A stretch of 64,000 bases of DNA from Elusimicrobiota bacterium (GTDB taxonomy: Bacteria > Elusimicrobiota > Elusimicrobia > UBA1565 > UBA9628): contig JACQAZ010000046.1 in assembly GCA_016194705.1 (NCBI GenBank), positions 2,372 through 66,371 of the forward strand, read 5' to 3'. A program made the translations under genes and the position numbers. This document shows positions 37,655-55,574 of the stretch, in pieces (the stretch's first letter is position 1; the number at the start of each line of letters is the position of its first letter). The notes under the pieces were generated by a model, which had not been told where the DNA came from, did no database searches, and saw only the letters and a program-made list of their open reading frames with translations.

Positions 37655-37772
37655 TCTCCCGGCTTCGCTTCTCACAGTCAACAGTCTTACCCCGGAAGCC
37701 CCGCTTGTCAAGCCCCTGAGTCCGGGGCCGGGGAAACAGTATAAAAGCCGCTTGTGGAAGGGCGCGTGAGCT

Positions 37773-39068
37773 TCAACGCCGCGGCGCGTGAAGGTACCCT
37801 GGCAGGTAAGACGCGGCCGGGCTGCGCGCGAGCGCGGCGGCTTCCGCGACGGCCTCGTCGAAATGGGCGTCGAGGTCCGGCGTCTTCAGGTTCTTGTGAA
37901 AGAACGCGACCCAGGCGTTCTCGCTATGAGGCCTCCGGAGCGCCCGGATCACCTTGAGCTCGACGAGGCGGTCGACGACGCTGCGCACCGGGTCGTTGAC
38001 CAAGCCCCGAACGTCGCGGGGAAGCCTTGAGGCCGGCACGGGGCCCGCGCCGTGCTCGTCGAGGAGATAAGCGAGGCCCCTGCGCTTCATCCTTTCCTCG
38101 AACTCGGCCTCGCTGAGCTTTGACCAGTCGGCCTTGACGACGTACCGCGTCAAGACCAGGCCCGCCTCCCAGGCCGCCCGCACACGGTGGTGGCGGTCGA
38201 GCATATACTTCGATCCCCCCGGGCCGATGATGACGGGCACCGGATGGGCGACGAGATGCCGCCTGATATCGCCTTCCTCGACGATTTCCTTGAGCTCGTC
38301 GACTTTCGTGCGCACCGTCCTTTCACCCATGATGAGCTGCGTGGGCCTGAACTCGAGCAGGGCCGCCTCGCCGCCGCGCGCGGCCTCGGAGGGAGAGCGC
38401 ATGTTCGCGTGCCTGGCGCCGGGGAGGTTCCAGGCCGCGCGGCTCTCGGACAAAGCGGTTGCCTCCGTCACGGCCGCGTCGAAGTTCGCGTTGATGTCGG
38501 CCGTCTTCATGCGCCGGCGCAGGAACGGGACCCAGTAATGGTTCTCGGCGTGAGGCTTCGGGCTCTTGGTGATGACTCTCAATCCCTTGAGGGCCGTCGT
38601 GACGCTGCGGACGGGATCGTCAGGCATCGCCATGACGTTCCTCGGAAGGGTGTCGGGAGAAAGCGGGCCCTCACCCATCCCATCGTAGAGATAGGTCCAG
38701 TTCATTTCCTGCATCTTGTCCCAGAACTGGGCCCAGCCCATTGCCGACCAGTCGGCCACCGGCTTGACGGGCAGCGAGGGAATCCCGGTCTCCGCGGCCG
38801 CGCGCGCGAGATGGTGACGGTCGATCATGTAGAGAGCCGTCCCGACGACGGTATCGTCGGGGCTGGCGGGGCCGACGACGATCGGGACCGGATGCTCGAC
38901 GAGATATTGACCGAGCTCGAGTCCCTCCATTCCCTTCAGCTCCAGCGCGCGGGATTGGACCGCCACCTCGCCCACGGCGAACTGCGTCGGCCTCAACTCG
39001 AGGATGCGCACCTCAGCCGCTCGCGACGGGCCGACGGCGAGCATGAAGGCAATCAGCGAGGAGATCAT
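37773..39068 (-). CDS. Exported protein with two tandem ParB-like nuclease (ParBc_2-type) domains
   Basis: Two copies of RPTQ..G...HPVP.++GP...YM.DRHH..RAA..G....DWS.....M......L.D..G.GP....LPR.V....DDPVRS+. Signal peptide; alternative GTG start 39089. Confidence 0.8.
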   Translation of the reverse strand: MISSLIAFMLAVGPSRAAEVRILELRPTQFAVGEVAVQSRALELKGMEGLELGQYLVEHPVPIVVGPASPDDTVVGTALYMIDRHHLARAAAETGIPSLPVKPVADWSAMGWAQFWDKMQEMNWTYLYDGMGEGPLSPDTLPRNVMAMPDDPVRSVTTALKGLRVITKSPKPHAENHYWVPFLRRRMKTADINANFDAAVTEATALSESRAAWNLPGARHANMRSPSEAARGGEAALLEFRPTQLIMGERTVRTKVDELKEIVEEGDIRRHLVAHPVPVIIGPGGSKYMLDRHHRVRAAWEAGLVLTRYVVKADWSKLSEAEFEERMKRRGLAYLLDEHGAGPVPASRLPRDVRGLVNDPVRSVVDRLVELKVIRALRRPHSENAWVAFFHKNLKTPDLDAHFDEAVAEAAALARSPAASYLPGYLHAPRR

Positions 39069-39072
39069 AGAG

Positions 39073-39705
39073 CTAAGGTTTGTCGACACTGTAGAGCTGG
39101 TCCAGCAGCTTGCGTCTTTCGGCTTTCGCGCGCGCGATGTCGGAGACGGCCGACGACGGGAGGCTGTGCAGGATCATATCGCGGTCGTGGATGCCGCCCA
39201 GCAAGTCCTGTAGATTGCGGATCTGCCCGGGGGACTCGCCGGTGAAGGCCTCGATAAGGTCTCCCAGCCGCTTGATGGTCAGGCGCGCGGAGTGCAGTCC
39301 CTCGGAGTCGTTCTCGTCGCGCACGGTCCCCAAACGCTTCGATGCCTCGGAGGCTTGATCCAGGATGGCGCGCCTTATTTTTTCCGAGAGCTTCTTTCGC
39401 TCGGCGGCGGGAGCCGAGGCGACGGCCTCGAGCGCGGGCTTCAGGCGCGCCGCAATGCCCGTAAATTGCGTGTGCCAGCGCTTGAGCTCCATCGAGCGCT
39501 CAGGAGACTCGCCGCCTTCGCCCTTCGCCCCCCCGCCGAGCCATTTGTCCTTGACCTGCGCGTCGCGCCAGCGGCCGGCGGTCGAGAACATGCCATTGAG
39601 CGCGGAGCGTTCCGCCGGCGCGAGATCGAGCATCTCCAGCACGGTCAGCAGCTTGCGCAGGCTCGTGCGAAAAACGTGAAGGCCCGAGCTCTTGAGGTCC
39701 GCCAT
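39073..39705 (-). CDS. CHAD-domain (polyphosphate-binding) protein
   Basis: LHVFRTSLRKL, RDAQV, LHSARLTIKRL and LQDLLGGIHDRD match the two CHAD His/Arg motifs. Confidence 0.8.
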   Translation of the reverse strand: MADLKSSGLHVFRTSLRKLLTVLEMLDLAPAERSALNGMFSTAGRWRDAQVKDKWLGGGAKGEGGESPERSMELKRWHTQFTGIAARLKPALEAVASAPAAERKKLSEKIRRAILDQASEASKRLGTVRDENDSEGLHSARLTIKRLGDLIEAFTGESPGQIRNLQDLLGGIHDRDMILHSLPSSAVSDIARAKAERRKLLDQLYSVDKP

Positions 39706-39720
39706 GACGGCGGCCGCTTC

Positions 39721-40356
39721 CTAGGCGTCATTGAGGACGTGGACGGCGATGGAAGCCGCTCGCGCGACGTCCGGATCCTTGGCCGTCGCGCTCTCGGCCG
39801 AGCGCTCGACGCGCCGGGCCGCGCCCCCGAGGCCGAAAGCCGCCGGCATCAAAGGCGACTCCTCACGAACCTGCCGGGCCTGCCTCAAGCGCTCCTTGAC
39901 GCGCTCTCTGGTCGCCCGCACGTCGCCGGCGTCCGGGACGACGACCGAGACGGCGAGCAGATTCTTGAGCTCGCGCTTGCGCTGCTCGAGCTGACTGACC
40001 GCCGAGGCGGCCTTCTCAACGCCGCCCGCCACAAGTTCGCCGATGTCGAGGTCGGGTTTTGCGATCTCTTCGTCGATCCTGGTCCGCAGATGCTCCCGAA
40101 TCCAGTCCGCTTGGCCGGCGGCGTCCGTTTCCGGACGCTTCGCGAAGTCGGGCAGCGCGTCGAGACGGGCATCCAGCAGGCTCTGCAGGGACGGCTCGAG
40201 AGATTTGGGCAAGGCCAGCTCCGCAAGGACGGCCGGAGAGAGCGGATAATGCGCCTCGACCGCGATAGAAATCGGGCGCACGGTCTTCCCGGCGCCAGGA
40301 ATGTCCGCGGCTGCCGCCGCTCCGGTGACGACGAAAGCGAGGATCAGGGCTCTCAT
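39721..40356 (-). CDS. Hypothetical exported helical protein
   Basis: Signal peptide MRALILAFVVTGAAAA; ATG overlaps the stop of the upstream giant gene (ATGA). Confidence 0.7.
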   Translation of the reverse strand: MRALILAFVVTGAAAAADIPGAGKTVRPISIAVEAHYPLSPAVLAELALPKSLEPSLQSLLDARLDALPDFAKRPETDAAGQADWIREHLRTRIDEEIAKPDLDIGELVAGGVEKAASAVSQLEQRKRELKNLLAVSVVVPDAGDVRATRERVKERLRQARQVREESPLMPAAFGLGGAARRVERSAESATAKDPDVARAASIAVHVLNDA

Positions 40357-43300
40357 GGCTTCGACTTTCCTTTTTCCGCCGAGGTCGTGATGGGCCGCGC
40401 CTGCAGTATGGCGACGCGGTCACCTTGGATCGCGAACTCGATGTCGAGCGGAAAGCCGAAGTGAGCCTCGAGCGCCTTGGCGATGCGCGCGAGCCTTTGA
40501 GTCTGCTCGAGCGTCAGCGCGCGGCGCCGCCGCCGCGACCGCTGGATGCCCCGAATCTCGGTGCCGGCGCCGTCGGCGCGCGGCATGACCGCGATGCGCT
40601 TCTCTCCTATGAAAGGAAGCCTTGTCTCCTCTCCGTCCGACTTTCGCGCGATGTAGCGGTCGGTCTGCACGATGCCCGACACCACGCCCTCGCCAAGACC
40701 ATAGGCCGCGTTGATGACGATCTCGTCAGCGCCGCTCACCGGATTGCGCGTGAAGATCACCCCGGCCGCGTCGGCCTGCGCCATCTCTTGGATGAAGGTC
40801 GAGGGCAGAAGCTCGGTCGATTTGACGCCGTGGGCGTGGCGGTAGCTGATGCCGCGCGGCAGCCAGAAAGAGGCCCAATTCTCGACGACCATGGCCAGCG
40901 CATCCTCCGCCTTGACGTGGAGGTAGCTCTCGGCGGCTCCCGCGAAGGCGGCGTCGGCTTGGTCTTCCTGCACCGCGGACGAGCGCACGGCCAGGCGTTT
41001 TTGACCGTCGACGAGCCAATGATCCCGCATGCCCCGCCAAATCTCGGCGCCAAGGCCGCTCTCCCGGTTGAGCTTGCCCGATCTGATGAGTGCGCTGATT
41101 TTCTCCGAAAGCTCAGCCACTTTATTCTGGCGCTCCTCATCTCTTAACGCCTCGGATTGGACGCGGTCGAGTTCCTCGGCCAAGGCCCGGAGCTGGTCCT
41201 TAAGGCCGTTTTCTTCGAGGAACCTCAGCCAGCCCTGCGTCGTGACGGAGAGGGCCGAGGGGACGTAGGCGTCCAGCGAACGCACGACCGACAAGATCTC
41301 GCCGAGCTTTGCGAACTTGCCGCCCACGATCCCGGTGTCGCCCTCGGCGGCGGCGCCCAAAGGCAGAATATCCGGGACGATGGCGCGATGCGCCAGGCTG
41401 CGGACCGCGCGCTCGAAGTCGGACAGAACCTCGGTGCGCGGGGCGTCCTGCACCGCGGCGCGGGCGCGCTCGACGACGCCCTCCTGCATTCCCAAGATCC
41501 TCGCCAGCGCCTGCAGCCGCCGCAGTTCGGGCTCGCCGAGCTCGACGCGGCCGTCCTGCATGCGCTTGAGCTGGTCCACAAGCAGACGGCGGCCGTGGTC
41601 GCGCGCCTCCAGGCGCCGCGGAGCGTCCGTTTGGCGCAGCAGACTTGCCACCACCTTCGCGTCGGCATCGCGCCGGGGCCCGGGATTAAAAAGCGTCTCT
41701 TCGAGAGCGGCGGCAACGCCAGCCGAGGTCGTCGGCGGCGCCGCGCGCTTACCCTTCAAAGTCTCGTCGACATAGTCCAAAGCCGCGGCGGCGTCGGCTT
41801 CAACGTCGTCGAAGTGCGATAATTCTCCGGTCGCCCCATTGACGCGGATGAGCCCGCCTTCCTTCATGGTAAAGCGCCGCAGAGTCAGCTCGGGGGTCAG
41901 GCTGAGCCCCTTGCGCTCGACGGGCCTGGCGTTGGCCGCGTAGACGTCGAACTCGATATAGACGCGCCGCTCGCCGTCCTTGCGCCACCGCGCCGTCGGC
42001 AGTATGACGGAGGGAATACCCATCTCGCGAGTCGTGATGCCGGCATGGCTCAACAGGCCTCCCCCGGTCGTCACGACGGCCGCCGCTTGACCGATCGCGT
42101 TGATGTCGTCGGGCTCGGTGAACGGAACGATCAAGATGGCTCCGGGCTTGCCGGCTCTCTCAAAAGTGACTCGCGCCGTGACAAAGCCCCCCTCGCCGGC
42201 GGAGACCGCGAGCCCCGCCGCGCGCTGGCCCAAGTACGGCGAGGCGGCGGGCCGGGCCCGCAGCATCTGGTCGAGCAGCGCGGCCTGGGCGGCGCCGACG
42301 TCCTCGACCGTCGGGGCAGCAATTCCCTGACGCTCCAGGAATTGCGCGAGTGCCGCCGCCGTCAAGTCGCCGGAGAGCTCGGAATCAAAGGCCTGCGCGC
42401 GGGCGTAGCCGATGAAGCCCGTCTCGGGATCGCGCAGGACATAAAGGACCAGGGCTTTGCGCCCGAGGCGCAGGACCGCACGCTCCGCCCGCAGCGCGCC
42501 GACGGCGCCGATGGGCTCGTACGCGAGCTCGGGGTCGAGATGGCTCGCCATGGACGCCACGCGCCGCGCCTCGGCGGGATCGGCTAGCACGAAGTCGGCC
42601 AAGCTCTCCACGGGCCTATACTTCTGCGGCTCGGGAACTCCCTCCTCGCCCAGCGAGAGCTGGCCTATGATCACCGCCTTCTGCACGGCGTCCGTGAAAT
42701 GGCGCTTGATGACGGCCCGGCCAAAGCCAGCGGCCTCCGGGATCCGCGGCAGGCCGAGGCGCGAAAGTTCCGCATCCAACGCCTGAGTCAGGAGCCTGCG
42801 CTGCGCCGCCTGCTTCTTCTCGACGTAGGCGTCGTAGTGCTTGCCGAAACTCGCGTTGTCGTTCCGGTTCCATTCCTTGCTCGGCCAGCCGCCCTCGGCC
42901 ATGAAGAGATCGGCGTACCGGCGCATCGTTTCAAGACCTTCCGCGCCCTTGAATTTCTCGAGATACAGGTTTAGCTCCGAATCCTCGTGCAAAGTCTGGA
43001 TGACTTTAGGGAAAAGCTCGGCCAGCTGGGACTCGGAGCTGAGGCCGTGGTCCTTGTCCAGCACCGCGGTCAAGAACTGGTCGGCCTCCAGATCGTGCGA
43101 GACGCCCATGTCGCCGAGCTGCATCTCCAAGAGCGACATACGCTCGCGCTTGCCGCGGCCCGTCTCCCAATCTTCGTAGCGGATGCGCAGCATGCCCCCG
43201 TCGTCGGGTGCCGCGAACTTGACGTAGATTTCGGCGCTATGCTTGCCCAGCGTGGCGTGGCACCAAGCTTCATCCCCATTGACGATGATGCGATCCTGAT

Positions 43301-45845
43301 GTGCCGATTGTATATCGCCCAGTCGCGAAAGCAGCGACGCCAGCGGCGGGCTTTGCAGGCGGCCCTGCCGGATGAGCGAACCTTCCTGAAGGTTGGTGAA
43401 GGCGATCTGGTGGCCGCCGAAGGAAAGCCGGCCCGTGCCCTGGCCTTGGTCCTTCTTGGCCAGCAGAGTGAGGCTCATCTTGTGCATGTAGTTGACGAGG
43501 CTGTGGAGATGGCGCATGTCGGAGAGCCCCACGTTCTTCTCGAAGGAGCCGACCTGAGCCGCCAAGTCTTGGGGCAGAGGCTGTCCCTCGGGAAGCTGGA
43601 TCCAGGCCGTCTCCAAGGATGCCGCGATGGTCCTGTATTTCTCGGACACCGCCTCGCCGTCGGCGGCGTTGCCGCCGAGCGCCGCCAGCTCTTGGTAGCT
43701 CGCCACCATCTTGCCCATCTCGGCCACGATGACCTTGGCCCCGGACTTGGTCATGCCGCGCGCGTGGTTCATGAGCGGCAGCACCCGGAAGTTGGATTCG
43801 ATCAGCGCGTCGAAGACCCTAAACCGGCTTCGCAGGCTGTCCTTGCCTTGGTTGGGCTGAGTGTCGGGCCACAGATAAGCGGCTCCAAGCTGGGGCTTCT
43901 CGGCGTCGACAGCATTGCGCACACCCGGGACGCGGTAGGGTAATTGATAGAGGCCGCTCGAGACGGCATTTCTTGAACTTTCCTCATCGGCGGCGACCAA
44001 GAAGGGAACGCCGGCCAAATCCGCCGCCGCCGGGATCTCGGGTTTGCGGCCCGATCTCGCGGCGTGCTCGAGCGTCACGACGAATTCGTCGACGCTGTCC
44101 TTGTCCGCGAAAAACGACCTCTCGAAGCCCGCGGAGGTCATGGCGGCAAGATTTGGAACGTAGCGCTTCAAAGTCGCGATGTACTCGGGATAAAGCGAAG
44201 CGAGCAGCTTGTCGGCGGTGGGGAACCGCTGCGTGAGGATGTTGTCGAGCGACAGCTGCGACCGGTTCGCGCCGAGTGCCGCCAGCGTCTGCTCCAGGAA
44301 GTGCCGAACCCACGGGTCTGCGGCCTTGACGAGTAAGGCGTCGCGCCGCGCTTTCCATTTGGCGTCGTCGGTCCGGAACTCCTGCAGCGCCGCGTTGGCG
44401 GCGGCGACGGCGGCGACGACGGCCTTGCCGGACCGGGCCTTGCGGATGCCGCGCTCCATGGCGTCGAGCGCCTCGTTGTAGCGCTCAAGCGCGGGCATAG
44501 CTTCACCTGCGAGCGACCTGAGTTCGGGCACGAAAGCCTTAAGCGAACCCCCCTCGTCCTTCTCGAGGCGATCCAAGAGATGAGGGATGTCTGCCGAGGT
44601 GATATTGAACCTTGCGTCCGACAACGCGGAGAGCTCCGTCGGCTCCTCGGCCGCATGCTCCCGGCGTTGCGCGATGAACTCGCGGGTCAGTTCGGGATTA
44701 ATGAAGAGCGAGTTCTCATAGCCGGCGATGCCCACGTGGGACAGATTGGGGATCAGGCGCCGCAGTTCCTTGATCTCCTCGGGATACCGGGCGTCCAGCA
44801 GCGCCTCGGCGTTCGGGATGCGCCCTTGCAGCAAGGTCCCCACGTCGAGCGCGGCGACGTTCTTTTTGAGATCGGCGCCGTCCATGACCGCCTTCAAGAA
44901 GACCCGATCGCCGCCCTTCGCCTTGGCGTACAAAGCATCCCTCTTGGGCTTCCACGCGTTGCGCGCCGCAACGAACTCGTTCAGGGAGACCTTGGCCTCT
45001 TTCCAGAAGGATTGGAACTTTCCCTCCGCATGGTCGCGGATGGCGGCGTCGATCCGGCCTACGGCCTTCTCGACCTTCGCGGCCGGAAGCATGACGTCCA
45101 TGGCCAGGGAGTCCGCCTCCTCATGGTAGGCCTTCAACGGAGTGTTCCGGCCGGGCGTCGCGACGTAGAGCGAATCCCTTCCCGTGCGCTTCAAGCGATA
45201 GAGCGTCAGCTGTCCCGACTCGAAGAAGGAGCTAACGTCGCCTTTCATCGGCACCGGGTAGCCGGCGCGCGTCATGTAATAGATCTTTGCTCCAGATGCG
45301 ATCGCCTTCTTGAACGCGGCCGTGTGTTTTCCCAACGGCGTCAATCGGGTCTCGGCCGCGGAAGCGCCGGCCGCGGCGCCGTCGCCGAGCTCCGGTGAGG
45401 GTTTGGTCTTGCTCGCGCTGTCGAAGAACGCGCCGGCGTCGAAGAGGCCATTGGCCAGCGCCTCCTGGAGCTGGTCGGCGAATCGGACGACGCGGTCTGT
45501 TCCCGATGCCGCGCCGTCTGTCGCCTCAACGGCGTCCGCCCCGGGCTCCGTTCCCAGCGCGGCGGCAGGCCCGTCGATGATGATCGACTTGGTGTGCAGC
45601 ACCCCCGCCTCGGTCTTGACCTCCGGAGCCGGCGCCGGCGAACCCTCGAGCCCTGCGACCGGCTTCAGCGGATCGAGGCCCTTCACGTCGAGCTCGACGG
45701 CTGGGATCGGGCTTGCGTGCATCGCAGTCCCCGGCAGCGCGACGGCGGGGATATCCTTGCCCGCGCCCCGAAGGATCTCGCCGCCAAAGGAGGCGGTCGC
45801 CAGCAGCAAGAGCGCGGTGCCGACGGAGGGAAGCCGCATTCTCAT
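40353..45845 (-). CDS. Large exported dikinase-like protein, 1830 aa: 2 repeats, central domain, PEP-utiliser His domain, C-terminal PPDK/PPS-type ATP-grasp
   Basis: Signal peptide MRMRLPSVGTALLLLATASFG. His domain VVTTGGGLLSHAGITTREMG. ATP-grasp VGGKFAKLGEI, LAVRSSAVQED.ADAAFAGAAESYLHV, AYGLGEGVVSG and LDIEFA..ILQARPIT. ATG 45845 overlaps the upstream stop. Confidence 0.88.
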   Translation of the reverse strand: MRMRLPSVGTALLLLATASFGGEILRGAGKDIPAVALPGTAMHASPIPAVELDVKGLDPLKPVAGLEGSPAPAPEVKTEAGVLHTKSIIIDGPAAALGTEPGADAVEATDGAASGTDRVVRFADQLQEALANGLFDAGAFFDSASKTKPSPELGDGAAAGASAAETRLTPLGKHTAAFKKAIASGAKIYYMTRAGYPVPMKGDVSSFFESGQLTLYRLKRTGRDSLYVATPGRNTPLKAYHEEADSLAMDVMLPAAKVEKAVGRIDAAIRDHAEGKFQSFWKEAKVSLNEFVAARNAWKPKRDALYAKAKGGDRVFLKAVMDGADLKKNVAALDVGTLLQGRIPNAEALLDARYPEEIKELRRLIPNLSHVGIAGYENSLFINPELTREFIAQRREHAAEEPTELSALSDARFNITSADIPHLLDRLEKDEGGSLKAFVPELRSLAGEAMPALERYNEALDAMERGIRKARSGKAVVAAVAAANAALQEFRTDDAKWKARRDALLVKAADPWVRHFLEQTLAALGANRSQLSLDNILTQRFPTADKLLASLYPEYIATLKRYVPNLAAMTSAGFERSFFADKDSVDEFVVTLEHAARSGRKPEIPAAADLAGVPFLVAADEESSRNAVSSGLYQLPYRVPGVRNAVDAEKPQLGAAYLWPDTQPNQGKDSLRSRFRVFDALIESNFRVLPLMNHARGMTKSGAKVIVAEMGKMVASYQELAALGGNAADGEAVSEKYRTIAASLETAWIQLPEGQPLPQDLAAQVGSFEKNVGLSDMRHLHSLVNYMHKMSLTLLAKKDQGQGTGRLSFGGHQIAFTNLQEGSLIRQGRLQSPPLASLLSRLGDIQSAHQDRIIVNGDEAWCHATLGKHSAEIYVKFAAPDDGGMLRIRYEDWETGRGKRERMSLLEMQLGDMGVSHDLEADQFLTAVLDKDHGLSSESQLAELFPKVIQTLHEDSELNLYLEKFKGAEGLETMRRYADLFMAEGGWPSKEWNRNDNASFGKHYDAYVEKKQAAQRRLLTQALDAELSRLGLPRIPEAAGFGRAVIKRHFTDAVQKAVIIGQLSLGEEGVPEPQKYRPVESLADFVLADPAEARRVASMASHLDPELAYEPIGAVGALRAERAVLRLGRKALVLYVLRDPETGFIGYARAQAFDSELSGDLTAAALAQFLERQGIAAPTVEDVGAAQAALLDQMLRARPAASPYLGQRAAGLAVSAGEGGFVTARVTFERAGKPGAILIVPFTEPDDINAIGQAAAVVTTGGGLLSHAGITTREMGIPSVILPTARWRKDGERRVYIEFDVYAANARPVERKGLSLTPELTLRRFTMKEGGLIRVNGATGELSHFDDVEADAAAALDYVDETLKGKRAAPPTTSAGVAAALEETLFNPGPRRDADAKVVASLLRQTDAPRRLEARDHGRRLLVDQLKRMQDGRVELGEPELRRLQALARILGMQEGVVERARAAVQDAPRTEVLSDFERAVRSLAHRAIVPDILPLGAAAEGDTGIVGGKFAKLGEILSVVRSLDAYVPSALSVTTQGWLRFLEENGLKDQLRALAEELDRVQSEALRDEERQNKVAELSEKISALIRSGKLNRESGLGAEIWRGMRDHWLVDGQKRLAVRSSAVQEDQADAAFAGAAESYLHVKAEDALAMVVENWASFWLPRGISYRHAHGVKSTELLPSTFIQEMAQADAAGVIFTRNPVSGADEIVINAAYGLGEGVVSGIVQTDRYIARKSDGEETRLPFIGEKRIAVMPRADGAGTEIRGIQRSRRRRRALTLEQTQRLARIAKALEAHFGFPLDIEFAIQGDRVAILQARPITTSAEKGKSKP
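44070..45130 (-). repeat. Two copies of the same ~195-aa repeat in the 1830-aa paralog
   Basis: WKPKRDALY...RYPEEIKELRRLIPNL and WKARRDALL...LYPEYIATLKRYVPNL. Confidence 0.82.
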
Positions 45846-48800: not shown

Positions 48801-51800
48801 TCCGCCATCTCCTGGATGATCGTCGACGCCGCGAGGCTCGTCGAGGGGATCTTCTGCTGGTGGCGGTAGACGATGCCGCGCGGCAGCCAGAAGGAGGTCC
48901 AGTTCTCGATGACCTTGTGCAGCGCCTCCTCGGGCCTGACGTGGAGGTAGGACTCGGCGGCTCCCGCGAAGGCGGCGTCGGCCGTGTCCTCTTGGACGGC
49001 GGAGGAGCGGATGGCGAGCTGCTTGCCGTCCGCCGCGAGGCCGCGGGCCTGCATCCCCTCCCAGATCTCCTGGCCGACGCCGGATTTGGCATCGAGCTTG
49101 CCGGAGAGAAGCAAAGTGCGGATCTGTTTGGAGATCTCGGCGACTTTCTCCTGCCGGGCCGCCTCGGATTGAGCGCTCGAGAGGACCGCGTCCAATTGTT
49201 CGGCCAAAACGCGCAGCGGCCTTTCGAGGCCGTTCTCCCTCAGGAAGCGCCGGTAGGCCTCGGTGGTGACGGCCAGCGCCTCGGGCACGTAGCCGCCCGC
49301 CTTGCGCACGACGGCCAGGATCTCGCCCAGCTTGGAAAGCTTGCCGCCCACCAATATGCGGTAATCGTCATCGACGACTCCCAGAGGAAGAACGGAAGGC
49401 GCCATGCCCTTGATGCCGCCTTGCTTCTCCTCGGTCAGCCTCTTCTCGAGATTCTGGAACAGCCCCAAAGTAGATTTCGCATAGACCTTGTCGGCGACGG
49501 CGCGGTTCTGCAGCAGGCGCACCAGCCGGCGCACGGCGGGCAGGTCCTCCGTCGTGGGTTTCGTCGAGTTCAGGCGCACGACCTCCGGGCGCGCGGCGAT
49601 GAGCGCCGCCTCCTCGCGATTGGCGAGCGCCGCGCGCAGCCGCTCCTCAGCGGCCTTAAGGGGAGCCAAGGCGTCCGTCTTCTGGTCGAAGAGCGCCGCC
49701 ATATCCTCGAGTTGCTTGATTTCCGCGTGAAAAGCGGCGATCGACGCGGCGCCGGCCTCGGTCTCGGCGGGGACATTGGACTTGACTGTCGTGAGACGAT
49801 CCTCGAAGAGGCGCCTTCCGTGGTCGCGAGCCTGCTGCCGGATGTCCTCACGCCTGTGGGTCAGCAGCCTCAACAGGATGGCGCCCGCCGACGCGCGCTT
49901 GGATGGATTGAACAGGGCCTCCTCCACGGCGAAGGCCACGGCTCCGGCCTTGCGGGATTCCGACTCCTTCGGGAAGACGTACATCTCGCCGGTCGCGCCG
50001 TTGACGCGGACGAGGTCTCTTTCGTGAAGCGTGAGGCGCACCGCGCGCAGGCGGGGTCTGACGACCGCCCCGTCCACGTGGACGGCCTCGCCCTCGGGCT
50101 CGTACGTCGTCAGCTCGAGCTCGTCCTTGCCCTCGCCTGTCTTCTTCCACTCGGCGCGCGGCAGGATGACGGAGGCCAGGCCCAGCTCGCGCGTCGTGAT
50201 GGCGGCATGGCTCAACAGCCCGCCGCCCGTCGTCACCACGGCCGCCGCGTTCTTGATCGCGCCGATGTCGTCGGGCGTGGTGTAGGGCACGATGAGGGCG
50301 GCGCCCGGCTTGCCTTTGCGGTCGAAGGTCACCGAGGCCGTGACGAGCCCGCCCCGGCCGGCGGAGGCCGCCAGGCCGTCCACGCGAGTGCCGGAGAGCG
50401 GCGAGCGCGAAGGATTTCCCAGCTGCCACACCTTCAGCAGAGCCTTCTGGGCGCCGGTCAACGCCTCAGGTGCGGGAGCCTTGACGCCCCGTTCGTTCAG
50501 GAAGGAGATCAAGCCCTCGGCGTCGAGCGGCGTGAGCCCCGCGGCGGGGTCGTGGCGGAAAGCGGCGGTGTAGCCCAGCGTGCCGGTCTCCGGCTCGCGC
50601 AAGCCGTAGAGGACCAAGGCCTGATCGCCGAACTGCCAGATGGCGCGCTCAGTGCGCATCGCGCCGACGGCGCCGATCGGCTCGTACTCGAGCTCCGACT
50701 CAAAGTGGCCGATGACGGAGGCGACGGCCTCGGCGGCGTCGCGGCTTCCGTGGACGTAGGCCGCCAGGGCCTCGACGGGACGGTAGTCCTGCCGTTGCGG
50801 GATGCCTGCGTCGTCCCATTTGAGCTCGCCGCGGATCAAGGCCCGATTGACGGCGGCGGTGAAGTGCTTCTCGACCGCGGCCTGGCCCATCACGGCGTCT
50901 TCGGGGATCGTCGGGAGGCCCAGTCGAGTCAGCTCCTTGTCCAAAGTCTTGCGCATGGTCTCGCGCGTCTTGTTCCGCCCCATGTATTCCTTATAGATGT
51001 CGTGGTAATTCCCGCCCTTGTTCCAACCCTCGGCCCAGCGCCCCTCAGCCATATAGATGTCGGCCAGCTGCGGGACGACCTTCGCGCAGCCGTCCTCGCC
51101 GAGGTTGTTGAATGCGCAGTTCATGTCCAGCGTGTCGTGCAGCCCCTGCAAAGTGAAGGAGAAGAGCCTCTCGAGCTGCTTCTCGGAGGAGAGGCCGTGG
51201 TCCTTGTCGATGATCGAGACCAGGTGCAGGGGATCTTTCCCATGGGTGGCGATGGGCTTGCCCGTTTTCGGATCCCGAGGTCTCGTGTCCTCGACCTCAG
51301 TGTGGATCCCCAGGCGCATGTGCTCCTCTCTGACCAAGGCCAGGCGCGCCGGGTTGCCGACGGGAGTGTTGGTCCCTTCTTGATAGCGTATGCGCAGCAT
51401 GCCGCCGTCGTCGGGGTCGGCGAACTTGACGTAGATCTCGGCGCTGTGCAGGCCCAGGTGCGCGTGCACCCAAGCCTCGTCGCCGCGGATGATCACCGTG
51501 TCGGTCTGGTGGCCGCCGGGGCGCTTGTCCCGGTTGAGCAGTGCGCGCAGCGGCTTGCTCAGGAGATGGTTGTTCTTGGACAAGGGTTCGTCGCCCAGGT
51601 CCATGAACGGGATCTCGTTGTTGAAATTGATCGCGCCTCTCTCGTTGCCCGCCGCCTCCTGGGCGCTGAGCGCCTCGAAGCTGCTCTGGTGGATGAAATT
51701 GACCATCGTATGCAGGTTCTTGACCGCGGCAAGCTCCGCGCCCGGCTCGATGCTGCTGATCCGCTGCGCGACCGCTTCGGGCAGAGTCCCGGTCTCGGGC

Positions 51801-54800
51801 ACGTCCTTCCAGAGCTGCTCGAGCTCAGCGACGATCGCTGCATATCTCTGGCGCACCGCCTCGCCGTCGGCGGCCTTTTGGGCGCTCTTGGTCAGCGTCT
51901 CGTAGTGGCTCACCATCGTCCCCACCTCGGCGACGATGGCGCGCCCGGCGGCCTTGGGCATCGGCTCGGAGGAGAACCTGCTGATGATGGGCAGCACGCG
52001 GAAGTTGGTTTCGATCAGCTCCGAGAAGATGCCGAAGCGCTCCTTGAGCTTCTCTTTCGCCGCTCCGGGCGTCGCGTCGGGCCGGAAGGTCGCGTAGCCG
52101 GGGTTGTTCGGGTCAGCGAAATCCTCGAGATCCTTGGCGCCCGTGACGCGGTAGGGCAGGCGGAAGTCGCCGCTCTTGAACTTGGGCTTGAGCTTGTCGC
52201 CTCCCATGGGAACGACGAAGCGCACGTCCGAGAGCCCTTTGGATTGAGGCTGCGGGACCGATTCTCCCAAGAGGGAGCGGTTCGCGATGAAGTCGCCGAC
52301 CTTGTCCCGGTCCACGAAGATGGACCTCTCGAAGCCGTCGATCTTCATCGCCGACAACCCGGGCATGAAGCGGCGCAGCTCCTCGATGCGCTGGGGATGC
52401 AGCCAAGCCAGTAGCTCGTCGGCGTTGTGGAAACGGGCCGCCATCATCGTGTTCAAGGAGACCGGATTAGGATCGAGCGGCGTGAGCATCTGGGTCAGGA
52501 AGGAACTCAGGACGGGGTCGCCGACCTGGCCGAGGAGCGCGTCCCGCTTTTGCCGCCACCCGGAGGAGTCGGCCTGCCGCGCCGCGGTCATGCGGCTCAG
52601 CTCCTCGATGATCACGGCGGCCTTCCGGCTGCCTCCCTTGCCGGCGACGGCGCGCTGGAGCCTCTCGACGGCCCGGTCCCATTGCGCCAGGGCGGGCATG
52701 GCCTCGGTGACTACGCCCTGCAGCTGCGCCTCGTAAGGCTTCAAGACGCCGTCCTCGTGCTTCTCGAGCCGGCTCAACATCGCCGGAATCGATTTCGGCG
52801 AGACCTCGAATTTCGCGTAGGACAGGGCCCCGATCGCCGCGAGCGCCTTCTTATCCAGCGACTTCCTGTTCTTGATGAACTCGTCGGTAAGCTCCGGGTG
52901 GAGGAAGATGGATCCTTGAAAGTCGGAGACCCCGATGGATTTGAGATCGGGAATGTAGAGGCGCAGCTCCGCGATGCGTTTCGGGTAGAGCCAGGACAGC
53001 AGCTCGTCGGCGGTCCGGAACTTTGTGGCGATCAGCGAATTGAGATCGCCGCGCTGGGGATCGATCGCCGAAGCGACGTAGGCGACAAAGTTGCGGATCT
53101 GGGCGTCGGTGACCTTGCCGAGCAAGGCATCCCGACGCGCCTGCCAGCCGGAGGCCCCGTTCTGCCGCTCCGCGATCATGCGGCGCAGCTCGTCCAAGGA
53201 CTTCGCCGCGGCCTTGCCCGACTTGTCTTCGCCGAAGGCCGTCTGCAGGAGATCGAGGGTCTTTTCCCATTGCGCGATGACGGGCAGCGACTCCTTGGCC
53301 AGCTCGCTCAGCTCGGGCTCGATCGATTTCAACGGACCCTTATCCTTCGCAAGACGCTCCAACAGCCCAGGCATGTCCTTCGGCGTGAAGGCAAAGGCGG
53401 CGCGCGAAAGTCCGCGGAGGTTCTGACGAGCCGCCTCCCCGCGGCTGCGTTGATTCTCCAAGAACTCCAGAGTCAGCCCGCGGTCGACGAACATGGAGGT
53501 CTCGAAGTCCGTGACGGGGAGGCTCTTGAGATTGGGGATGTCGGTCCGCAGCTCCTCGATGTGGTCGGGATAAAGGGCGGAAAGCAGGTCGTCGGCGGTG
53601 GGGAAGCGTTCCGTCAGCAAGGCGCCCACGGTGATGCTCTTCTTGTGGAGCTTCTTGAAGTCGGCGCCGTCGATGAGCGCGGCGAGGAAGAGCTTGTCTG
53701 CATCCTTCGCGTTAGCATAGAAAGCGTCTCTCTTGGGCTTCCACGCTTCCCGCTCGGTCGCGTACGCCCCCAACACGGCGGTGGTTTCCCTGAGCGCCAC
53801 GCGGAGGTCCTTTTCGGAGTCGGCTCCCCGGATCACGGCGTCGAGCTTGTCCACGGCCTGCTTCGCCTTATCGGTCTGGGCGAGGGCCTCGAGGACGAGA
53901 GCGCGAGCCTCGGGGACCAGGGGCTGCAGCGACGGCTTCTGAAACGCTGCGAGCCGCTCCAGGGCCGCCGGGATCGCCTCCAGCGAGAAGGCGATCTGGG
54001 CCTGGGAGAGCGCCCCGATGGCCGGGACATCGCGGTTTCGCGTGGATTTTCGGTACCTGAGATACTCCAACGTCAGGTCCGGGTCGTTGAAGATCGACTT
54101 TTCCAGGTCGCCGATGCCGAGGCTCTTCAAGTTGGGGATGTAGCGGCGCAAGTCCCTGATGTACTCGGGATACAGCGCGGCCATCAGCGCGTCGGCGTCG
54201 GCGAATCGTTCCTGGACCAGCGCCTGGAAGGACAAGTCGGTATGGCTCTTCCCGAAATCGGCGCCCTCGACGACGGCCTTGAGGAAGGCGACGTCCGCCT
54301 CCTTCGCCTTCCCGTAGAGATCGTTCTTCTTGGCGGTCCACGTCTCCTGCGCAGTCCTGTATTCGGCCAGCTCGCGTTGAAGCTCCTTCAGGTTCTCGGA
54401 GAACTCCTTGGTCGCGCCGCGCGCGCGGGCCGGACGCCCGAGCCGGTCCAAGACCCTCTGCAGGCGCGCGCCTCGAGCCAAGGCGTCCGAGGCCAGCGCC
54501 CCCAGGTCCGCCTCGTAATTCTTCAACGAGCTCCGCCCGCTCGGCGCCACGACGTAGATCGCTCCCGTCCCCTTCGACTTAGTCTTGTACAGCGTCAAGC
54601 GCGCCGGCTGGAGGTAGCCGGCCACATCACCGTTGACCGGCACGAGCGTGCCGTTGGGCGCCTGATAGTAGATGCGATTTTTGATCTTGTCCTTGGCCTT
54701 CAGTATGCCGCGGCCGTAGCCGGGCGCGTACCTGCGCAGCTCGGTGAACTCGACAGGCGTTGGGTCCAGCCCATCCGCGACGTCCACCGTACCCGAGGGC

Positions 54801-55285
54801 CTGCGAACATGGTCGAAAATGACGCTGCCTTCGAAACGCCCCCGCGCCGGCGCCTTCTCGGCCTTGCCGGCCGCCGGGGCCTCGCCCTCCGCCGCGGCGG
54901 GGGCCGCCCCGTCTGCGGGGACCGTCGGCTCCGGCAACGCCATGACCGAGGGGGACGTCGGCGCCGCAAAGGCGGGGTCGTTGGCTGCTTCCTTTATAAC
55001 GCCGACTGCCGTGTCGGCGGCCGCCGTGGGGATCGCATCTCCCACCGAGATGCTGGTGAGGGCGGGCACTTCCTTTGTCAAGGACTCAATCGACTTGTTC
55101 GCGCCCGTACGGACTTCGGGGAGGCGGAGGGTCGCGATCTCCTTGGGAGCCGCGAAATCAGCGGCGACGGCGCGGGTTGCCTCCGGGCCCATCATTGAAA
55201 CGAGAAGCGACGCGATCAGAAGAGCCGAGAGAAAAGATTTGGCGGATGCGCAAACATCGCGCAACGAAGCCCCTGTCGACTTCAT
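45842..55285 (-). CDS. Giant exported protein, 3147 aa: 4 repeats, central domain, His swivel domain, ATP-grasp, five LMW-PTP domains
   Basis: Signal peptide; VVTTGGGLLSHAAITTRELG; VGGKLSKLGEI; LAIRSSAVQED; LDIEFAVKGDRIAILQARPVT. P-loops CTGNACRS, CSFNTSRS, CSGGACRS, CSFNTSRS and CDANHSRS. SD GGAGG and TATACT upstream. Confidence 0.9.
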   Translation of the reverse strand: MKSTGASLRDVCASAKSFLSALLIASLLVSMMGPEATRAVAADFAAPKEIATLRLPEVRTGANKSIESLTKEVPALTSISVGDAIPTAAADTAVGVIKEAANDPAFAAPTSPSVMALPEPTVPADGAAPAAAEGEAPAAGKAEKAPARGRFEGSVIFDHVRRPSGTVDVADGLDPTPVEFTELRRYAPGYGRGILKAKDKIKNRIYYQAPNGTLVPVNGDVAGYLQPARLTLYKTKSKGTGAIYVVAPSGRSSLKNYEADLGALASDALARGARLQRVLDRLGRPARARGATKEFSENLKELQRELAEYRTAQETWTAKKNDLYGKAKEADVAFLKAVVEGADFGKSHTDLSFQALVQERFADADALMAALYPEYIRDLRRYIPNLKSLGIGDLEKSIFNDPDLTLEYLRYRKSTRNRDVPAIGALSQAQIAFSLEAIPAALERLAAFQKPSLQPLVPEARALVLEALAQTDKAKQAVDKLDAVIRGADSEKDLRVALRETTAVLGAYATEREAWKPKRDAFYANAKDADKLFLAALIDGADFKKLHKKSITVGALLTERFPTADDLLSALYPDHIEELRTDIPNLKSLPVTDFETSMFVDRGLTLEFLENQRSRGEAARQNLRGLSRAAFAFTPKDMPGLLERLAKDKGPLKSIEPELSELAKESLPVIAQWEKTLDLLQTAFGEDKSGKAAAKSLDELRRMIAERQNGASGWQARRDALLGKVTDAQIRNFVAYVASAIDPQRGDLNSLIATKFRTADELLSWLYPKRIAELRLYIPDLKSIGVSDFQGSIFLHPELTDEFIKNRKSLDKKALAAIGALSYAKFEVSPKSIPAMLSRLEKHEDGVLKPYEAQLQGVVTEAMPALAQWDRAVERLQRAVAGKGGSRKAAVIIEELSRMTAARQADSSGWRQKRDALLGQVGDPVLSSFLTQMLTPLDPNPVSLNTMMAARFHNADELLAWLHPQRIEELRRFMPGLSAMKIDGFERSIFVDRDKVGDFIANRSLLGESVPQPQSKGLSDVRFVVPMGGDKLKPKFKSGDFRLPYRVTGAKDLEDFADPNNPGYATFRPDATPGAAKEKLKERFGIFSELIETNFRVLPIISRFSSEPMPKAAGRAIVAEVGTMVSHYETLTKSAQKAADGEAVRQRYAAIVAELEQLWKDVPETGTLPEAVAQRISSIEPGAELAAVKNLHTMVNFIHQSSFEALSAQEAAGNERGAINFNNEIPFMDLGDEPLSKNNHLLSKPLRALLNRDKRPGGHQTDTVIIRGDEAWVHAHLGLHSAEIYVKFADPDDGGMLRIRYQEGTNTPVGNPARLALVREEHMRLGIHTEVEDTRPRDPKTGKPIATHGKDPLHLVSIIDKDHGLSSEKQLERLFSFTLQGLHDTLDMNCAFNNLGEDGCAKVVPQLADIYMAEGRWAEGWNKGGNYHDIYKEYMGRNKTRETMRKTLDKELTRLGLPTIPEDAVMGQAAVEKHFTAAVNRALIRGELKWDDAGIPQRQDYRPVEALAAYVHGSRDAAEAVASVIGHFESELEYEPIGAVGAMRTERAIWQFGDQALVLYGLREPETGTLGYTAAFRHDPAAGLTPLDAEGLISFLNERGVKAPAPEALTGAQKALLKVWQLGNPSRSPLSGTRVDGLAASAGRGGLVTASVTFDRKGKPGAALIVPYTTPDDIGAIKNAAAVVTTGGGLLSHAAITTRELGLASVILPRAEWKKTGEGKDELELTTYEPEGEAVHVDGAVVRPRLRAVRLTLHERDLVRVNGATGEMYVFPKESESRKAGAVAFAVEEALFNPSKRASAGAILLRLLTHRREDIRQQARDHGRRLFEDRLTTVKSNVPAETEAGAASIAAFHAEIKQLEDMAALFDQKTDALAPLKAAEERLRAALANREEAALIAARPEVVRLNSTKPTTEDLPAVRRLVRLLQNRAVADKVYAKSTLGLFQNLEKRLTEEKQGGIKGMAPSVLPLGVVDDDYRILVGGKLSKLGEILAVVRKAGGYVPEALAVTTEAYRRFLRENGLERPLRVLAEQLDAVLSSAQSEAARQEKVAEISKQIRTLLLSGKLDAKSGVGQEIWEGMQARGLAADGKQLAIRSSAVQEDTADAAFAGAAESYLHVRPEEALHKVIENWTSFWLPRGIVYRHQQKIPSTSLAASTIIQEMAEADVAGVLFTQNPVTGADEFVINAAYGLGEGIVSGIVQTDRYVARKSDGQETKLPFIGDKRVAVMPKSGASGTELQGVAAERRKRRALTPEQTQRLALIAKALEEHFGYALDIEFAVKGDRIAILQARPVTTRGEVKAAPASQDKPLVVKVPPVEAPAAQPAAPAKKKIVFVCTGNACRSPMAEFFAKDMLAKEGNAAVEVFSRGVHARDGGYMSPDSMYQLELAGIDGRPHRSYKLKIEDVRNADYVLAMDQSNVDDILRKFPEAGGKTHLLKEFAQTGTGDVENPWPAIGRAYEETAAEIVAAVDAVARQVQSGERKLKSIVFACSFNTSRSPMAEYFAKEELKRLGIKNVKVVSRSLYAKARVGKPMNWTAQKLLETLEIDGSGHKSTPLTKQEAKDADVILVMDDDNIGDIKSRFPQARDKAFLLKQFAKTGYGEIENPSKKIFRAYSTAGKEIKEAVRAVIDKASAEAEPEPKTGPRKKRVTFVCSGGACRSAMAEHLAKDMLAKDGKTDVEVFSRGAKSGSYYSYDDDSYGGFGGSSHYSSEAMSEGSKAYLKANGIDAGAHRSKGLTLQDVMRSDVLLAMDEQNLDDILRQFPEADGKTFLLKEFAGLGTGDIENPSYGSTAGRLLAYEQTAKEITTAVKVVAKAAASAERKIKSIMFACSFNTSRSPMAEYYAKDELGKLGVKDVHVFSRSVGFGGGGSGSYFGFGSGGGSYSSYSPPMKSEAIDNLAKAGIDGRPHKSTPMTAQDVADSDVILVMEKEHVENILKKFPEAKGKVFLLNEFAGLGGTEIENPSKTAPRFGYIKAGTEIKEAVRAAINKDFTPPAPQAEATPKKAVLFVCDANHSRSPLAERLFKDRLRREGITDVDVWSRARYGGMGSMADLSAEVLRHKGIPVEPHSGRGITIRDVKRASVILVMTPDQKEYLERRYPSAKGKIFTMKEYGGGEGPILDHVRTIDAFLDMADQMEATFDALVGNLKK
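45845..48310 (-). repeat. Five tandem LMW-PTP domains (A-B-A-B-C) within the 3147-aa protein
   Basis: Domains 1 and 3 share AE..AKDMLAK.G...VEVFSRG; domains 2 and 4 share SI.FACSFNTSRSPMAEY.AK.EL..LG, with near-identical DNA at about 46775-46810 and 47795-47830. Confidence 0.88.
52280..54520 (-). repeat. Four ~195-aa helical repeats of unknown family
   Basis: Recurrent W..KRDA...F..AD.LL..LYP..I.ELR..IP.L......F..S+F motif at roughly 590-600 nt spacing. Confidence 0.85.
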
Positions 55286-55484: not shown

Positions 55485-55574
55485 GGAAGGGTGCGTGAGC
55501 GGTTGAAACGGCACGACTGGAAATCGTGTAGAGGTGAAAGCCTCTCGAGGGTTCAAATCCCTCCCCTTCCGCCA
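55485..55574 (+). tRNA. tRNA-Ser (GGA), 90 nt, long variable arm, encoded CCA
   Basis: Acceptor GGAAGGG/CCCTTCC; anticodon arm CACGA-CTGGAAA-TCGTG; variable arm AGAGG-TGAAAG-CCTCT; T arm GAGGG-TTCAAAT-CCCTC; 3' GCCA. Confidence 0.97.

Follow-up and report, generated by a model that had tools for sequence, protein, structure and literature searches.

A candidate family of exported swivel-histidine dikinases in Elusimicrobiota and an elaborated locus that adds phosphatase-fold domains and ParBc_2 and CHAD partners

What would a bacterium do with two giant dikinases that begin with signal-like N-termini, one of them fused to five phosphatase-fold domains and both encoded beside genes for CHAD and ParB-like proteins? 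The question is raised by a set of five co-oriented open reading frames (ORFs), A to E, on the minus strand at positions 37773-55285 of a 64-kb stretch of contig JACQAZ010000046.1 from an Elusimicrobiota bacterium. We refer to the whole stretch as the window, and all coordinates are positions in it. An earlier reading of this DNA (the original prediction) proposed that the five genes form a new system for phosphorylation and dephosphorylation outside the cytoplasm. We find that A and B carry a conserved dikinase cassette whose family seems to be confined to Elusimicrobiota. The explanation that we favor, tentatively, is that the locus is an elaborated member of an Elusimicrobiota-specific, Sec-exported "swivel-histidine" dikinase family and works as a writer combined with a reader/eraser machine.

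Layout of the locus and its dikinase cassette

The ORF calls agree with the five co-oriented genes described originally. Composition at third codon positions is as expected for real genes (GC3 of 0.81 to 0.89 in a window of 66% GC). The features are listed here, with a slash marking a putative cleavage site. "Mid" denotes a family-specific domain, and LMW-PTP stands for protein tyrosine phosphatase of low molecular weight. L002 is a homologous locus.

45842..55285 (-), gene A, 3147 amino acids (aa), from the ORF call, Pfam, and self-comparison: putative signal peptide, Ala/Pro-rich N-terminal region, four helical repeats, mid, His swivel domain, linker, ATP-grasp domain, and five LMW-PTP-like domains
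55163..55285 (-), signal-like N-terminus of A, MKSTGASLRDVCASAKSFLSALLIASLLVSMMGPEATRAVA/AD (heuristic call)
52196..54514 (-), four ~190-aa all-helical repeats of A (residues 258-445, 459-648, 655-845, and 858-1030)
50318..52264 (-), mid domain of A (residues 1008-1656), family-specific
50108..50317 (-), phosphohistidine swivel domain of A (PEP-utilizers), with a GGLLSHA motif and His1693
48371..49369 (-), ATP-grasp domain of A (PPDK_N), with GGKLSKLGE, RSSAVQED, GLGEGIVSG, DIEFA, and LQARP intact
45845..48310 (-), five tandem LMW-PTP-fold domains of A, from Pfam and motif inspection
40353..45845 (-), gene B, 1830 aa from the ATG at 45845: putative signal peptide, N-terminal region, two helical repeats (241-430 and 441-600), mid (600-1230), His swivel domain (His1267), linker, and ATP-grasp domain (1501-1830)
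39721..40356 (-), ORF C, 211 aa: putative signal peptide and an orphan region, the last ~40 residues being the start of a probable ancestral CHAD protein
39721-39723 (-), TAG between C and D, in TAGGAAG (39700-39730), with a Shine-Dalgarno-like AGGA 12 nt upstream of the D ATG; L002 has TCCCGTG
39073..39705 (-), ORF D, 210 aa: CHAD domain, isoelectric point (pI) 9.6, lacking its own signal peptide
37773..39089 (-), gene E, 438 aa: short hydrophobic N-terminus and two ParBc_2 domains; an alternative ATG at 39068 gives 431 aa

Both ATGA stop/start overlaps noted earlier are real (A/B at 45842-45845 and B/C at 40353-40356), and the A/B overlap is also found in homologous loci L002 and L005. The junctions within the set are either overlapping or 4 to 17 nt, and terminator-like sites on the minus strand were not above chance. 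Cotranscription of A to E is predicted from the junctions and the absence of such sites.

Genes A and B are paralogues, with 43% identity over ~1,650 residues. Upstream of the swivel domain, they share one layout: the signal-like N-terminus leads into a segment rich in Ala and Pro, then come helical repeats of ~190 aa, and finally mid. Pfam matched PEP-utilizers to residues 1659-1713 of A and 1233-1281 of B, both above the gathering score, and PPDK_N to residues 1978-2304 of A (1e-69) and 1506-1827 of B (6e-69). A also matched LMWPc (2.8e-103), and B has no phosphatase domain by Pfam. The dikinase motifs are intact in both proteins (GGLLSHA, GGKxxKLGE, RSSAVQED, GLGEGxVSG, DIEFA, and LQARP), with His1267 in the GGLLSHA motif of the B swivel domain. 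The domains named in the original prediction (dikinase modules, five CX5R LMW-PTP domains, CHAD, and ParB-like domains) are all correct by Pfam and NCBIfam.

The closest PDB structures for the dikinase parts are PEP synthases and RPH (8A8E, 5HV1, and 5FBS). A and B share with PEP synthase, PPDK, and RPH an ATP-grasp domain (PPDK_N, ~1e-69) and a swivel His domain with intact motifs, and the mechanism of RPH has been described (PMC4844700). However, the domain order of A and B is permuted. The His domain stands before the ATP-grasp domain, separated from it by a linker of 200 to 300 aa, whereas PEP synthase and PPDK run from ATP-grasp to His to TIM barrel. There is no Pfam match to PEP-utilizers_C, the TIM barrel domain, in A or B, and both lack the RIF-binding domain of RPH. 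Furthermore, members of the family are 1,800 to 7,400 aa long with a putative signal peptide, and the dikinase parts of A and B score ~250 bits in NCBIfam, far below every equivalog cutoff (598 to 1700).

GWD and PWD have an N-terminal acceptor module followed by a His domain and then an ATP-grasp domain. A and B resemble them in having a candidate substrate-binding N-terminal part, a phosphohistidine domain, and a C-terminal PPDK_N-type nucleotide domain. Two paralogous dikinases could also act in sequence, as PWD needs glucan that has been primed by GWD. The likeness extends to SEX4 and LSF2, in that a polymer phosphate writer is combined with a Cys-based (CX5R) phosphatase (for the biology of GWD and SEX4, see PMC12892837). 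However, A and B have no CBM45, CBM20, or any other carbohydrate-binding Pfam domain, and their mid domains and repeats are unrelated, novel modules. The phosphatase-fold domains of A are of the LMW-PTP/YwlE type and in cis rather than of the dual-specificity type of SEX4 and LSF2, and A and B are apparently exported, whereas GWD and PWD are plastidial.

The mid domain is ~630 aa long and acidic (net charge of -10 to -12), with many invariant His, Asp, and Arg residues (LGxHSAEIY, PDDGGMxRxRY, and DKD). It is presumed to be the acceptor-binding domain or a catalytic partner of the swivel His. An AlphaFold2 model of mid (pLDDT of 66) had no Foldseek match in the PDB at an E of <0.1. The repeat unit was modeled as all helical (pLDDT of 87) and had no significant match in the PDB by Foldseek, only generic helical-bundle matches with an E of >1. 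Neither model gave a clue to the substrate when compared with solved folds.

Relatives were collected by three kinds of search. A word-indexed homologue search of 5.8 billion proteins with the repeat and mid part of B returned only four relatives, and with the mid alignment it returned nothing. A pattern scan over 185,579 species-representative genomes found 11 loci, all in metagenome-assembled genomes of Elusimicrobia/Elusimicrobiota. A mid profile run exhaustively with HMMER against 1.84 billion cluster representatives gave 262 clusters at an E of ≤1e-3, including 83 at ≤1e-30. Ten representatives were looked up, and all with an organism name were Elusimicrobiota or Endomicrobiia. The dikinase family seems to be confined to Elusimicrobiota.

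Domains were annotated in the best 150 of the 262 cluster representatives using locally built hidden Markov models. Nearly all of them have the same cassette order of mid, swivel His, a linker of 200 to 400 aa, and ATP-grasp, with one to three cassettes per protein and protein lengths of up to 7,462 aa. Therefore, the conserved unit is the mid-His-ATP-grasp cassette rather than the five-gene set, and mid is its family signature.

No description of such an architecture was found in the literature searched, and none of the five proteins matched a PADLOC model, both of which agree with the earlier statement that no locus like this had been described. The PADLOC result also led us to drop a reading of the locus as a defense system. 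The nearest mention in the literature searched concerns the "Archaeovorins" of Omnitrophota, giant and largely unannotated proteins that are predicted to be extracellular and frequently have PPDK_N (bioRxiv 10.1101/2023.11.21.568195). The likeness to the present family lies in these described features. Archaeovorins belong to another phylum, have tens of thousands of residues, and contain many other enzymatic domains.

Some members have further modules. Giant relatives (P0033, P0054, P0057, and others) share an N-terminal module with the motifs VIxIQDxH...QxNI...EG and (IT)GGFHTxGL...SYxVITP, which has no Pfam annotation and is absent from the window proteins. A Pfam scan of four relatives other than the eleven giant members described below added only weak HEAT matches in P0043. 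Several B-like dikinases have a conserved ~260-aa C-terminal extension that window B lacks (L001, 3890-4681; L005, 13685-14476; L016; and P0011, residues 1778-2040). Its LEGVFEMFD and FHHVRLQMKNY segments look CHAD-like, but it had no Pfam match and an hhalign probability of <1%, so its identity as CHAD is unproven.

Fused LMW-PTP-like domains and ParBc_2 and CHAD partners

The C-terminal part of A was originally called a phosphatase array. Its five CX5R LMW-PTP domains are there, but they are mostly not canonical phosphatases because four of the five lack the general-acid Asp and the family P-loop is of the YwlE type rather than the phosphotyrosine type. The P-loops (CX5R[ST]) of domains 1 to 5 are CTGNACRS, CSFNTSRS, CSGGACRS, CSFNTSRS, and CDANHSRS, with catalytic Cys residues at 2334, 2488, 2651, 2828, and 3008 and with Ala, Thr, Ala, Thr, and His at position 5. 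The D-loop reads ENP in domains 1 to 4, an Asp-to-Asn change, and LDH in domain 5, which keeps Asp and loses Pro. Asn is conserved in the array domains of the window, L002, L005, P0051, and P0012, and one array domain in L002 has also lost the P-loop Arg. Therefore, the array domains are unlikely to be ordinary fast phosphatases. In PTP enzymology, Asp-to-Asn substitution is an artificial route to substrate traps, and here the change would stabilize the Cys-phosphate intermediate.

In the family, LMWPc is found in 23 of the 150 annotated representatives (~15%). It occupies three kinds of position relative to the cassette: after the ATP-grasp domain, between the swivel and ATP-grasp domains, and within mid, and Pfam confirmed all three in P0014, P0023, P0043, and P0058. 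Fusion at three different positions argues for a function in cis with the cassette. The best PDB match of the LMWPc domains is the arginine phosphatase YwlE (4PIC, 1e-21). At position 5 of the family P-loops, 17 of 24 have Thr and 1 of 24 has Ile, most loops being CTGNTCRS-like. A single-domain clade (L006 to L012) has the P-loop of YwlE itself, CTGNTCRSPMA, together with a canonical GD[IV]ADP acid loop, and the single-copy domain of these relatives looks like a competent eraser.

Position-5 Thr in place of the usual Ile sets specificity for phosphoarginine over phosphotyrosine in YwlE and DARP (PMC7772506). The YwlE-type P-loop suggests that the mark handled by the family may be a phosphoramidate (phosphoarginine-like) rather than phosphotyrosine, and arginine-phosphatase activity of the LMWPc domains is predicted from it. 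The single-domain relatives therefore resemble YwlE and DARP in P-loop, position-5 Thr, and D-P loop. However, the domains here are fused to a dikinase, with no McsB-type arginine kinase involved, and in A, position 5 is Ala in domains 1 and 3 and His in domain 5, and the catalytic Asp is replaced by Asn in domains 1 to 4.

C and D were originally taken to be two genes, but they are one split gene. They lie in one frame, with only one TAG (39721-39723) and five codons between them. L002 encodes one protein with, in order, ParBc_2, the equivalent of the last ~40 residues of C, and CHAD. This protein aligns to the C tail and D straight over the stop with 71% identity, and it has a TCC Ser codon at the TAG site. 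Therefore, C and D derive from one ancestral gene, and the locus consists of four ancestral genes, one of them interrupted. The CHAD profile match begins upstream of the Met of D, with the first helix in C, before the TAG. The ancestral gene would have encoded a signal peptide, a spacer, and CHAD. With the gene split in the window, CHAD (D) has to start at its own ATG and can be made only without a signal peptide. The split may be adaptive, with the TAG as a re-initiation site from which a signal-less CHAD protein is made. Three origins of the TAG come into question: a split that is adaptive and fixed, a nonsense mutation of recent date, and an assembly variant.

D matches Pfam CHAD (PF05235) with 38.9 bits against a gathering cutoff of 25.6, over profile positions 23 to 223 of 228, and ORF C had no Pfam match. 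CHAD domains bind polyphosphate (polyP) specifically (PMC6537752), and D is predicted to do so from its membership in the family. As a basic helical domain that scores above the gathering cutoff, D is like the CHAD proteins of polyP granules and CYTH-CHAD proteins. In contrast to them, the ancestral C+D protein has a putative signal peptide, is fused or adjacent to ParBc_2 rather than CYTH, and in the window is split by a stop.

E contains a pair of ParBc_2 domains (PF08857, 230.8 bits) and matches Atu1540, a structural-genomics protein (PDB 2HWJ), at 3e-25. The D-R-H-H residues are invariant, with DRHH motifs at residues 90 and 298. The ParB/Srx fold is a nucleotide/phosphate-binding fold, and to our knowledge the ParBc_2 family has no established function. 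E differs from Atu1540 in being duplicated, probably exported, and linked to a dikinase and CHAD. Its second ParBc_2 domain and D are both basic, with a pI of 9.6.

Single-domain ParBc_2 proteins of other metagenomes (P0007, P0008, and P0009; L017 to L031; GC of 44 to 71%) have signal-like hydrophobic N-termini, and an extracytoplasmic location may apply to at least part of this "putative ParB-like nuclease" family. Neither a dikinase nor CHAD lies near ParBc_2 in fifteen other loci from other organisms, and we rejected a general association between ParBc_2 and dikinases.

How much of this neighborhood is conserved? The A-B pair with its ATGA overlap is found in three genomes (the window, L002, and L005). 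A ParBc_2 gene lies directly downstream of a B-like dikinase in the window, L001, L016, and L002. CHAD is found only in the window and L002, and its fusion to ParBc_2 in L002 is a Rosetta-stone link between E and D. The proposed tie of ParBc_2 and CHAD to the dikinases holds in these loci. The proposed five-gene system with conserved neighbors holds only in part: the A-B pair and the ParBc_2 linkage recur, but the five-gene set is not a conserved unit and relatives are mostly stand-alone genes. In distant relatives, a stand-alone cassette, often with one fused LMWPc, lies among housekeeping genes, as in the clade L006 to L015, where it is a single gene encoding ~1,750 aa. The neighbors in this clade (CoaD-like, PrcB_C, M14, M3, Lgt, MetH, and CMAS) were rejected as partners because they reflect housekeeping synteny. 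ParBc_2 and CHAD are absent from most family loci and therefore are not essential to the core function; they appear to be genuine, clade-restricted accessories of a self-sufficient enzyme.

Two further observations concern ParBc_2 genes. At 7770-7830 of L002, a signal-like ORF start, MIPLLVLLAAQAFGG, overlaps the stop of the B-like gene by ATGA, in a frame offset by one base from that of the ParBc_2-CHAD ORF. The frame shifts at a G6 run, and this is probably an assembly indel that hides a signal peptide on the ParBc_2-CHAD fusion. In L001 (6523-7796), MbnB/TglH/ChrH-family and MbnC-like genes, of the kind that modify ribosomally synthesized and posttranslationally modified peptides, directly follow the ParBc_2 gene; the window has no such genes.

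Cellular location, proposed mechanism, and rival explanations

Signal peptides were judged by eye and with a crude hydrophobicity rule. By this heuristic, the N-termini of A, B, and C are signal-like, that of E is weaker, and D has none, which agrees with the original count of four such N-termini among the five genes. The B and C calls are MRMRLPSVGTALLLLATASFG/GE and MRALILAFVVTGAAAAA/D. The N-termini are organized n-h-c like Sec signals, with Arg/Lys, ~12 hydrophobic residues, and an AxA-like site, after which come long spacers rich in Gly, Ala, and Pro. For gene A, a GGAGGG Shine-Dalgarno-like sequence upstream of the ATG at 55285, together with an upstream stop and a tRNA gene, fixes the start. 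Nearly all full-length close homologues have signal-like N-termini. The pattern is kept in more than 10 homologues that are only ~30% identical in mid (MAPKPLRGALAFLLFALLARPALA/VE in eight loci; also L003 and L005). The A-like homologue in L003 begins with MGAHRRLGLSVIALVALVFPVFA/SE, and the ParBc_2 protein of L001 begins with MKKVRKGTACLVLSALIPTSAVFA/QS.

In A and B, the mature sequence outside the phosphatase-fold domains has 3 Cys among 4,073 residues, against ~44 expected from other window ORFs (1.08%; binomial 1e-15), and Cys is absent from C, D, and E. Bacterial proteins located outside the cytoplasm are typically depleted in Cys. A MacB-HlyD-OEP pump with an OEP/TolC-type outer-membrane protein is also encoded in the window, which indicates that the cell envelope is diderm. 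We infer that A and B are probably exported, and the extracytoplasmic location originally proposed fits two independent, if indirect, kinds of evidence: the conservation of the signal peptides among homologues and the extreme Cys depletion.

The intact catalytic modules (by Pfam, NCBIfam, and motifs) and the conservation of the cassette count in favor of a dikinase. By comparison with PEP synthase, PPDK, RPH, and GWD, its ATP-grasp, His, and acceptor domains would act in succession. The C-terminal ATP-grasp domain would pyrophosphorylate the swivel His (His1693 in A and His1267 in B) from a nucleoside triphosphate (NTP). One phosphate would then be shed, and the phosphorylated His domain would swing to mid, which lies N-terminal to it like the substrate-binding part of plant GWD. 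From there, the phosphate would pass to an acceptor held by mid and the helical repeats, most likely a macromolecule of the envelope or exterior.

The fused YwlE-type CX5R domains would act on the phosphorylated product. In relatives, the single-copy domain would be an eraser. In A, domains 1 to 4, with their Asp-to-Asn change, would more likely be multivalent readers, traps, or very slow erasers that hold A on the phosphorylated substrate, and domain 5, which keeps Asp, may hydrolyze the mark. A, held on its product, would extend or maintain the modification, and priming would fall to B, whose translation is coupled to that of A and which carries no phosphatase. The CHAD protein and the exported protein with two ParBc_2 domains would be clade-specific partners, and they may serve to deliver or scaffold either the phosphoryl donor or the polyanionic substrate. 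The direction of phosphate flow, the nature of the substrate, the reader and eraser roles, and any involvement of polyP are what we infer in this scheme.

Several points weigh against it. An ATP-grasp domain needs an NTP, which is not known to be supplied in the periplasm or exterior, and no donor was found. A writer fused to its own eraser makes a futile cycle unless both are regulated. The hydrophobicity rule was positive in ~50% of likely complete N-termini of the family and also in 26% of control ORFs, a remote branch of ~1,650-aa members appears to lack signals, and D, as part of a split gene, has none of its own. In L005, whose mid domain is 81% identical, A and B are present, but the 8 kb downstream of them hold just an alpha/beta hydrolase and neither ParBc_2 nor CHAD, and most family loci, including the distant clade L006 to L015, lack both accessory genes. 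Finally, a Pfam scan of eleven giant members (45,000 residues) found only PPDK_N, PEP-utilizers, one LMWPc, and one WD40, which gives no clue to the substrate.

A fuller version of our preferred explanation is improbable as a whole. It would be an extracytoplasmic, nucleotide-driven system in which the dikinase writes P-N (phosphoarginine-type) or other marks on envelope or extracellular macromolecules, YwlE-type domains read or erase them, and CHAD-bound polyP and ParB/Srx proteins feed or organize the process in one clade. If true, phosphoarginine-like marks could be made by a second route that does not depend on McsB, and ATP-grasp phosphotransfer machinery would be known outside the cytoplasm for the first time.

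The alternative that survives best, although we consider it unlikely, is that A and B are secreted effectors or toxins that act inside another cell (a host protist, prey, or competitor), modifying proteins or burning ATP to AMP and two phosphates. LMW-PTPs are secreted virulence factors in several pathogens. Action inside another cell would remove the problem of ATP supply, the putative signal peptides and Cys depletion fit secretion, and the giant, multicassette, repeat-rich family members resemble many delivered toxins. Furthermore, the giant Archaeovorins of Omnitrophota, which have been implicated in predation, often have PPDK_N (bioRxiv 10.1101/2023.11.21.568195). However, A, B, and the window contain no secretion-system, immunity, Rhs/CDI, or delivery domain, the proteins have no C-terminal sorting signal, and we found no evidence of a predatory lifestyle in these organisms. 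The family is also phylum-wide and includes stand-alone genes in housekeeping synteny, so it looks like core physiology rather than an accessory weapon.

The array of acid-less CX5R domains could instead be read as a phosphorelay like that of the phosphotransferase system (PTS), a reading to which we give little credence. The domains would be phosphocarriers, and phosphate would pass from the swivel His to Cys on the LMW-PTP fold and then to the acceptor, as it passes from EI, HPr, and IIA to IIB(Cys). Loss of Asp would stabilize the phosphorylated Cys. PTS Enzyme I also uses the PEP-utilizers swivel domain, and LMWPc domains have secondary matches to PTS_IIB (4.5e-7 in A and 4.4e-10 in L002), with which they share a fold and a phospho-Cys. 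The Asp that is replaced by a conserved Asn normally also activates water for hydrolysis of the phosphorylated Cys, and many relatives carry LMWPc at places that the swivel can reach, inside mid or between the His and ATP-grasp domains. However, the LMWPc scores (1e-103) far exceed the PTS_IIB scores, and the single-copy relatives, with a canonical GD[IV]ADP loop and a P-loop identical to that of YwlE, look like ordinary hydrolases. Five serial carriers are without precedent, and B works without any CX5R domain.

There is slightly less to be said for an extracytoplasmic economy of phosphate, polyP, or nucleotides. PPDK dikinase reactions are reversible, and the proteins might process polyP, extracellular DNA, or nucleotides, either for scavenging or with the dikinase in reverse, making NTP from AMP and a donor such as CHAD-held polyP. 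The binding of polyP by CHAD (PMC6537752), the ParBc_2-CHAD fusion beside a dikinase in L002, the signal-like N-termini of single ParBc_2 proteins from other metagenomes, and the basic character of D and the second ParBc_2 domain are all in line with this. However, CHAD and ParBc_2 are missing from most family loci, there are no pst/pho, PPK, or PPX genes nearby, the acidic mid domain is a poor fit for polyanion binding, and known scavenging enzymes are far simpler.

It is very unlikely that A and B are cytoplasmic enzymes that phosphorylate a cytoplasmic metabolite or protein with ordinary ATP, their hydrophobic N-termini being miscalled starts or membrane tethers: ATP dependence would be natural there, D and some remote family members lack signals, the N-terminal region of E has no positive charge, and the signal peptides were called by heuristic only, but the short h-regions after Arg/Lys with AxA-type sites are kept across divergent homologues, the start of A is fixed, long Gly/Ala/Pro-rich spacers follow the signal, and Cys depletion at 1e-15 is hard to explain in cytoplasmic proteins.

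In the favored view of an exported dikinase with reader and eraser domains, the chemistry (a swivel-His dikinase and a CX5R phosphatase) is that of the textbooks and the packaging is unusual: a new acceptor domain, apparent export, arginine-phosphatase-type domains fused in cis, acid-less CX5R arrays, and ParBc_2 and CHAD partners. If the proteins act outside the cytoplasm, then an extracytoplasmic source of high-energy phosphate (NTP or polyP) would be needed, against the usual view of the periplasm. The uncharacterized ParBc_2 proteins and exported CHAD proteins gain a concrete genomic partner, and the natural Asp-to-Asn "substrate-trap" domains may be usable for substrate capture. The family may also serve as a marker of its phylum, with at least 262 clusters and members of up to 7.4 thousand aa.

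Genes around the locus

The start of gene A and a divergent SPFH/zinc-ribbon gene (55653-56819) are 367 nt apart, and a tRNA-Ser(GGA) gene (55485-55574, plus strand) lies between them. The adjacent tRNA gene raised the idea of a mobile island, which is unsupported: GC is uniform, and the flanks are a nuo operon and efflux genes. On the other side, 61 nt downstream of E, a gene at 36737-37711 on the minus strand encodes a protein with a signal- or lipoprotein-like N-terminus, a GSSQGG nucleophile-elbow motif, and no Pfam match. The motif suggests a putative alpha/beta-hydrolase. The gene is not kept beside the relatives, and although a hydrolase gene follows the B-like gene in L005, homology between the two products could not be detected. 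We therefore excluded it as a sixth member of the set.

The nuo operon (8717-16800, minus strand) comprises a NuoD-like gene (8717-10036), then NuoC/B/A-like genes and genes for N-, M-, and L-like membrane subunits. It explains the strong AT skew at 12 to 16 kb and marks the window as chromosomal. Two minus-strand stretches (16835-21024 and 21153-25842) carry the MacB-type ABC tripartite efflux set, with an FtsX/MacB_PCD permease, an ABC ATPase, an HlyD adaptor, and an OEP outer-membrane factor, followed by a gene for an LPG_synthase_TM protein and one for an 870-aa membrane protein with a spermine/spermidine-synthase domain. At 30027-32672 on the minus strand, an 881-aa VIT-VWA protein (vault inter-alpha-trypsin and von Willebrand A domains) is encoded next to an sCache-HAMP-PAS histidine kinase (32676-34439).

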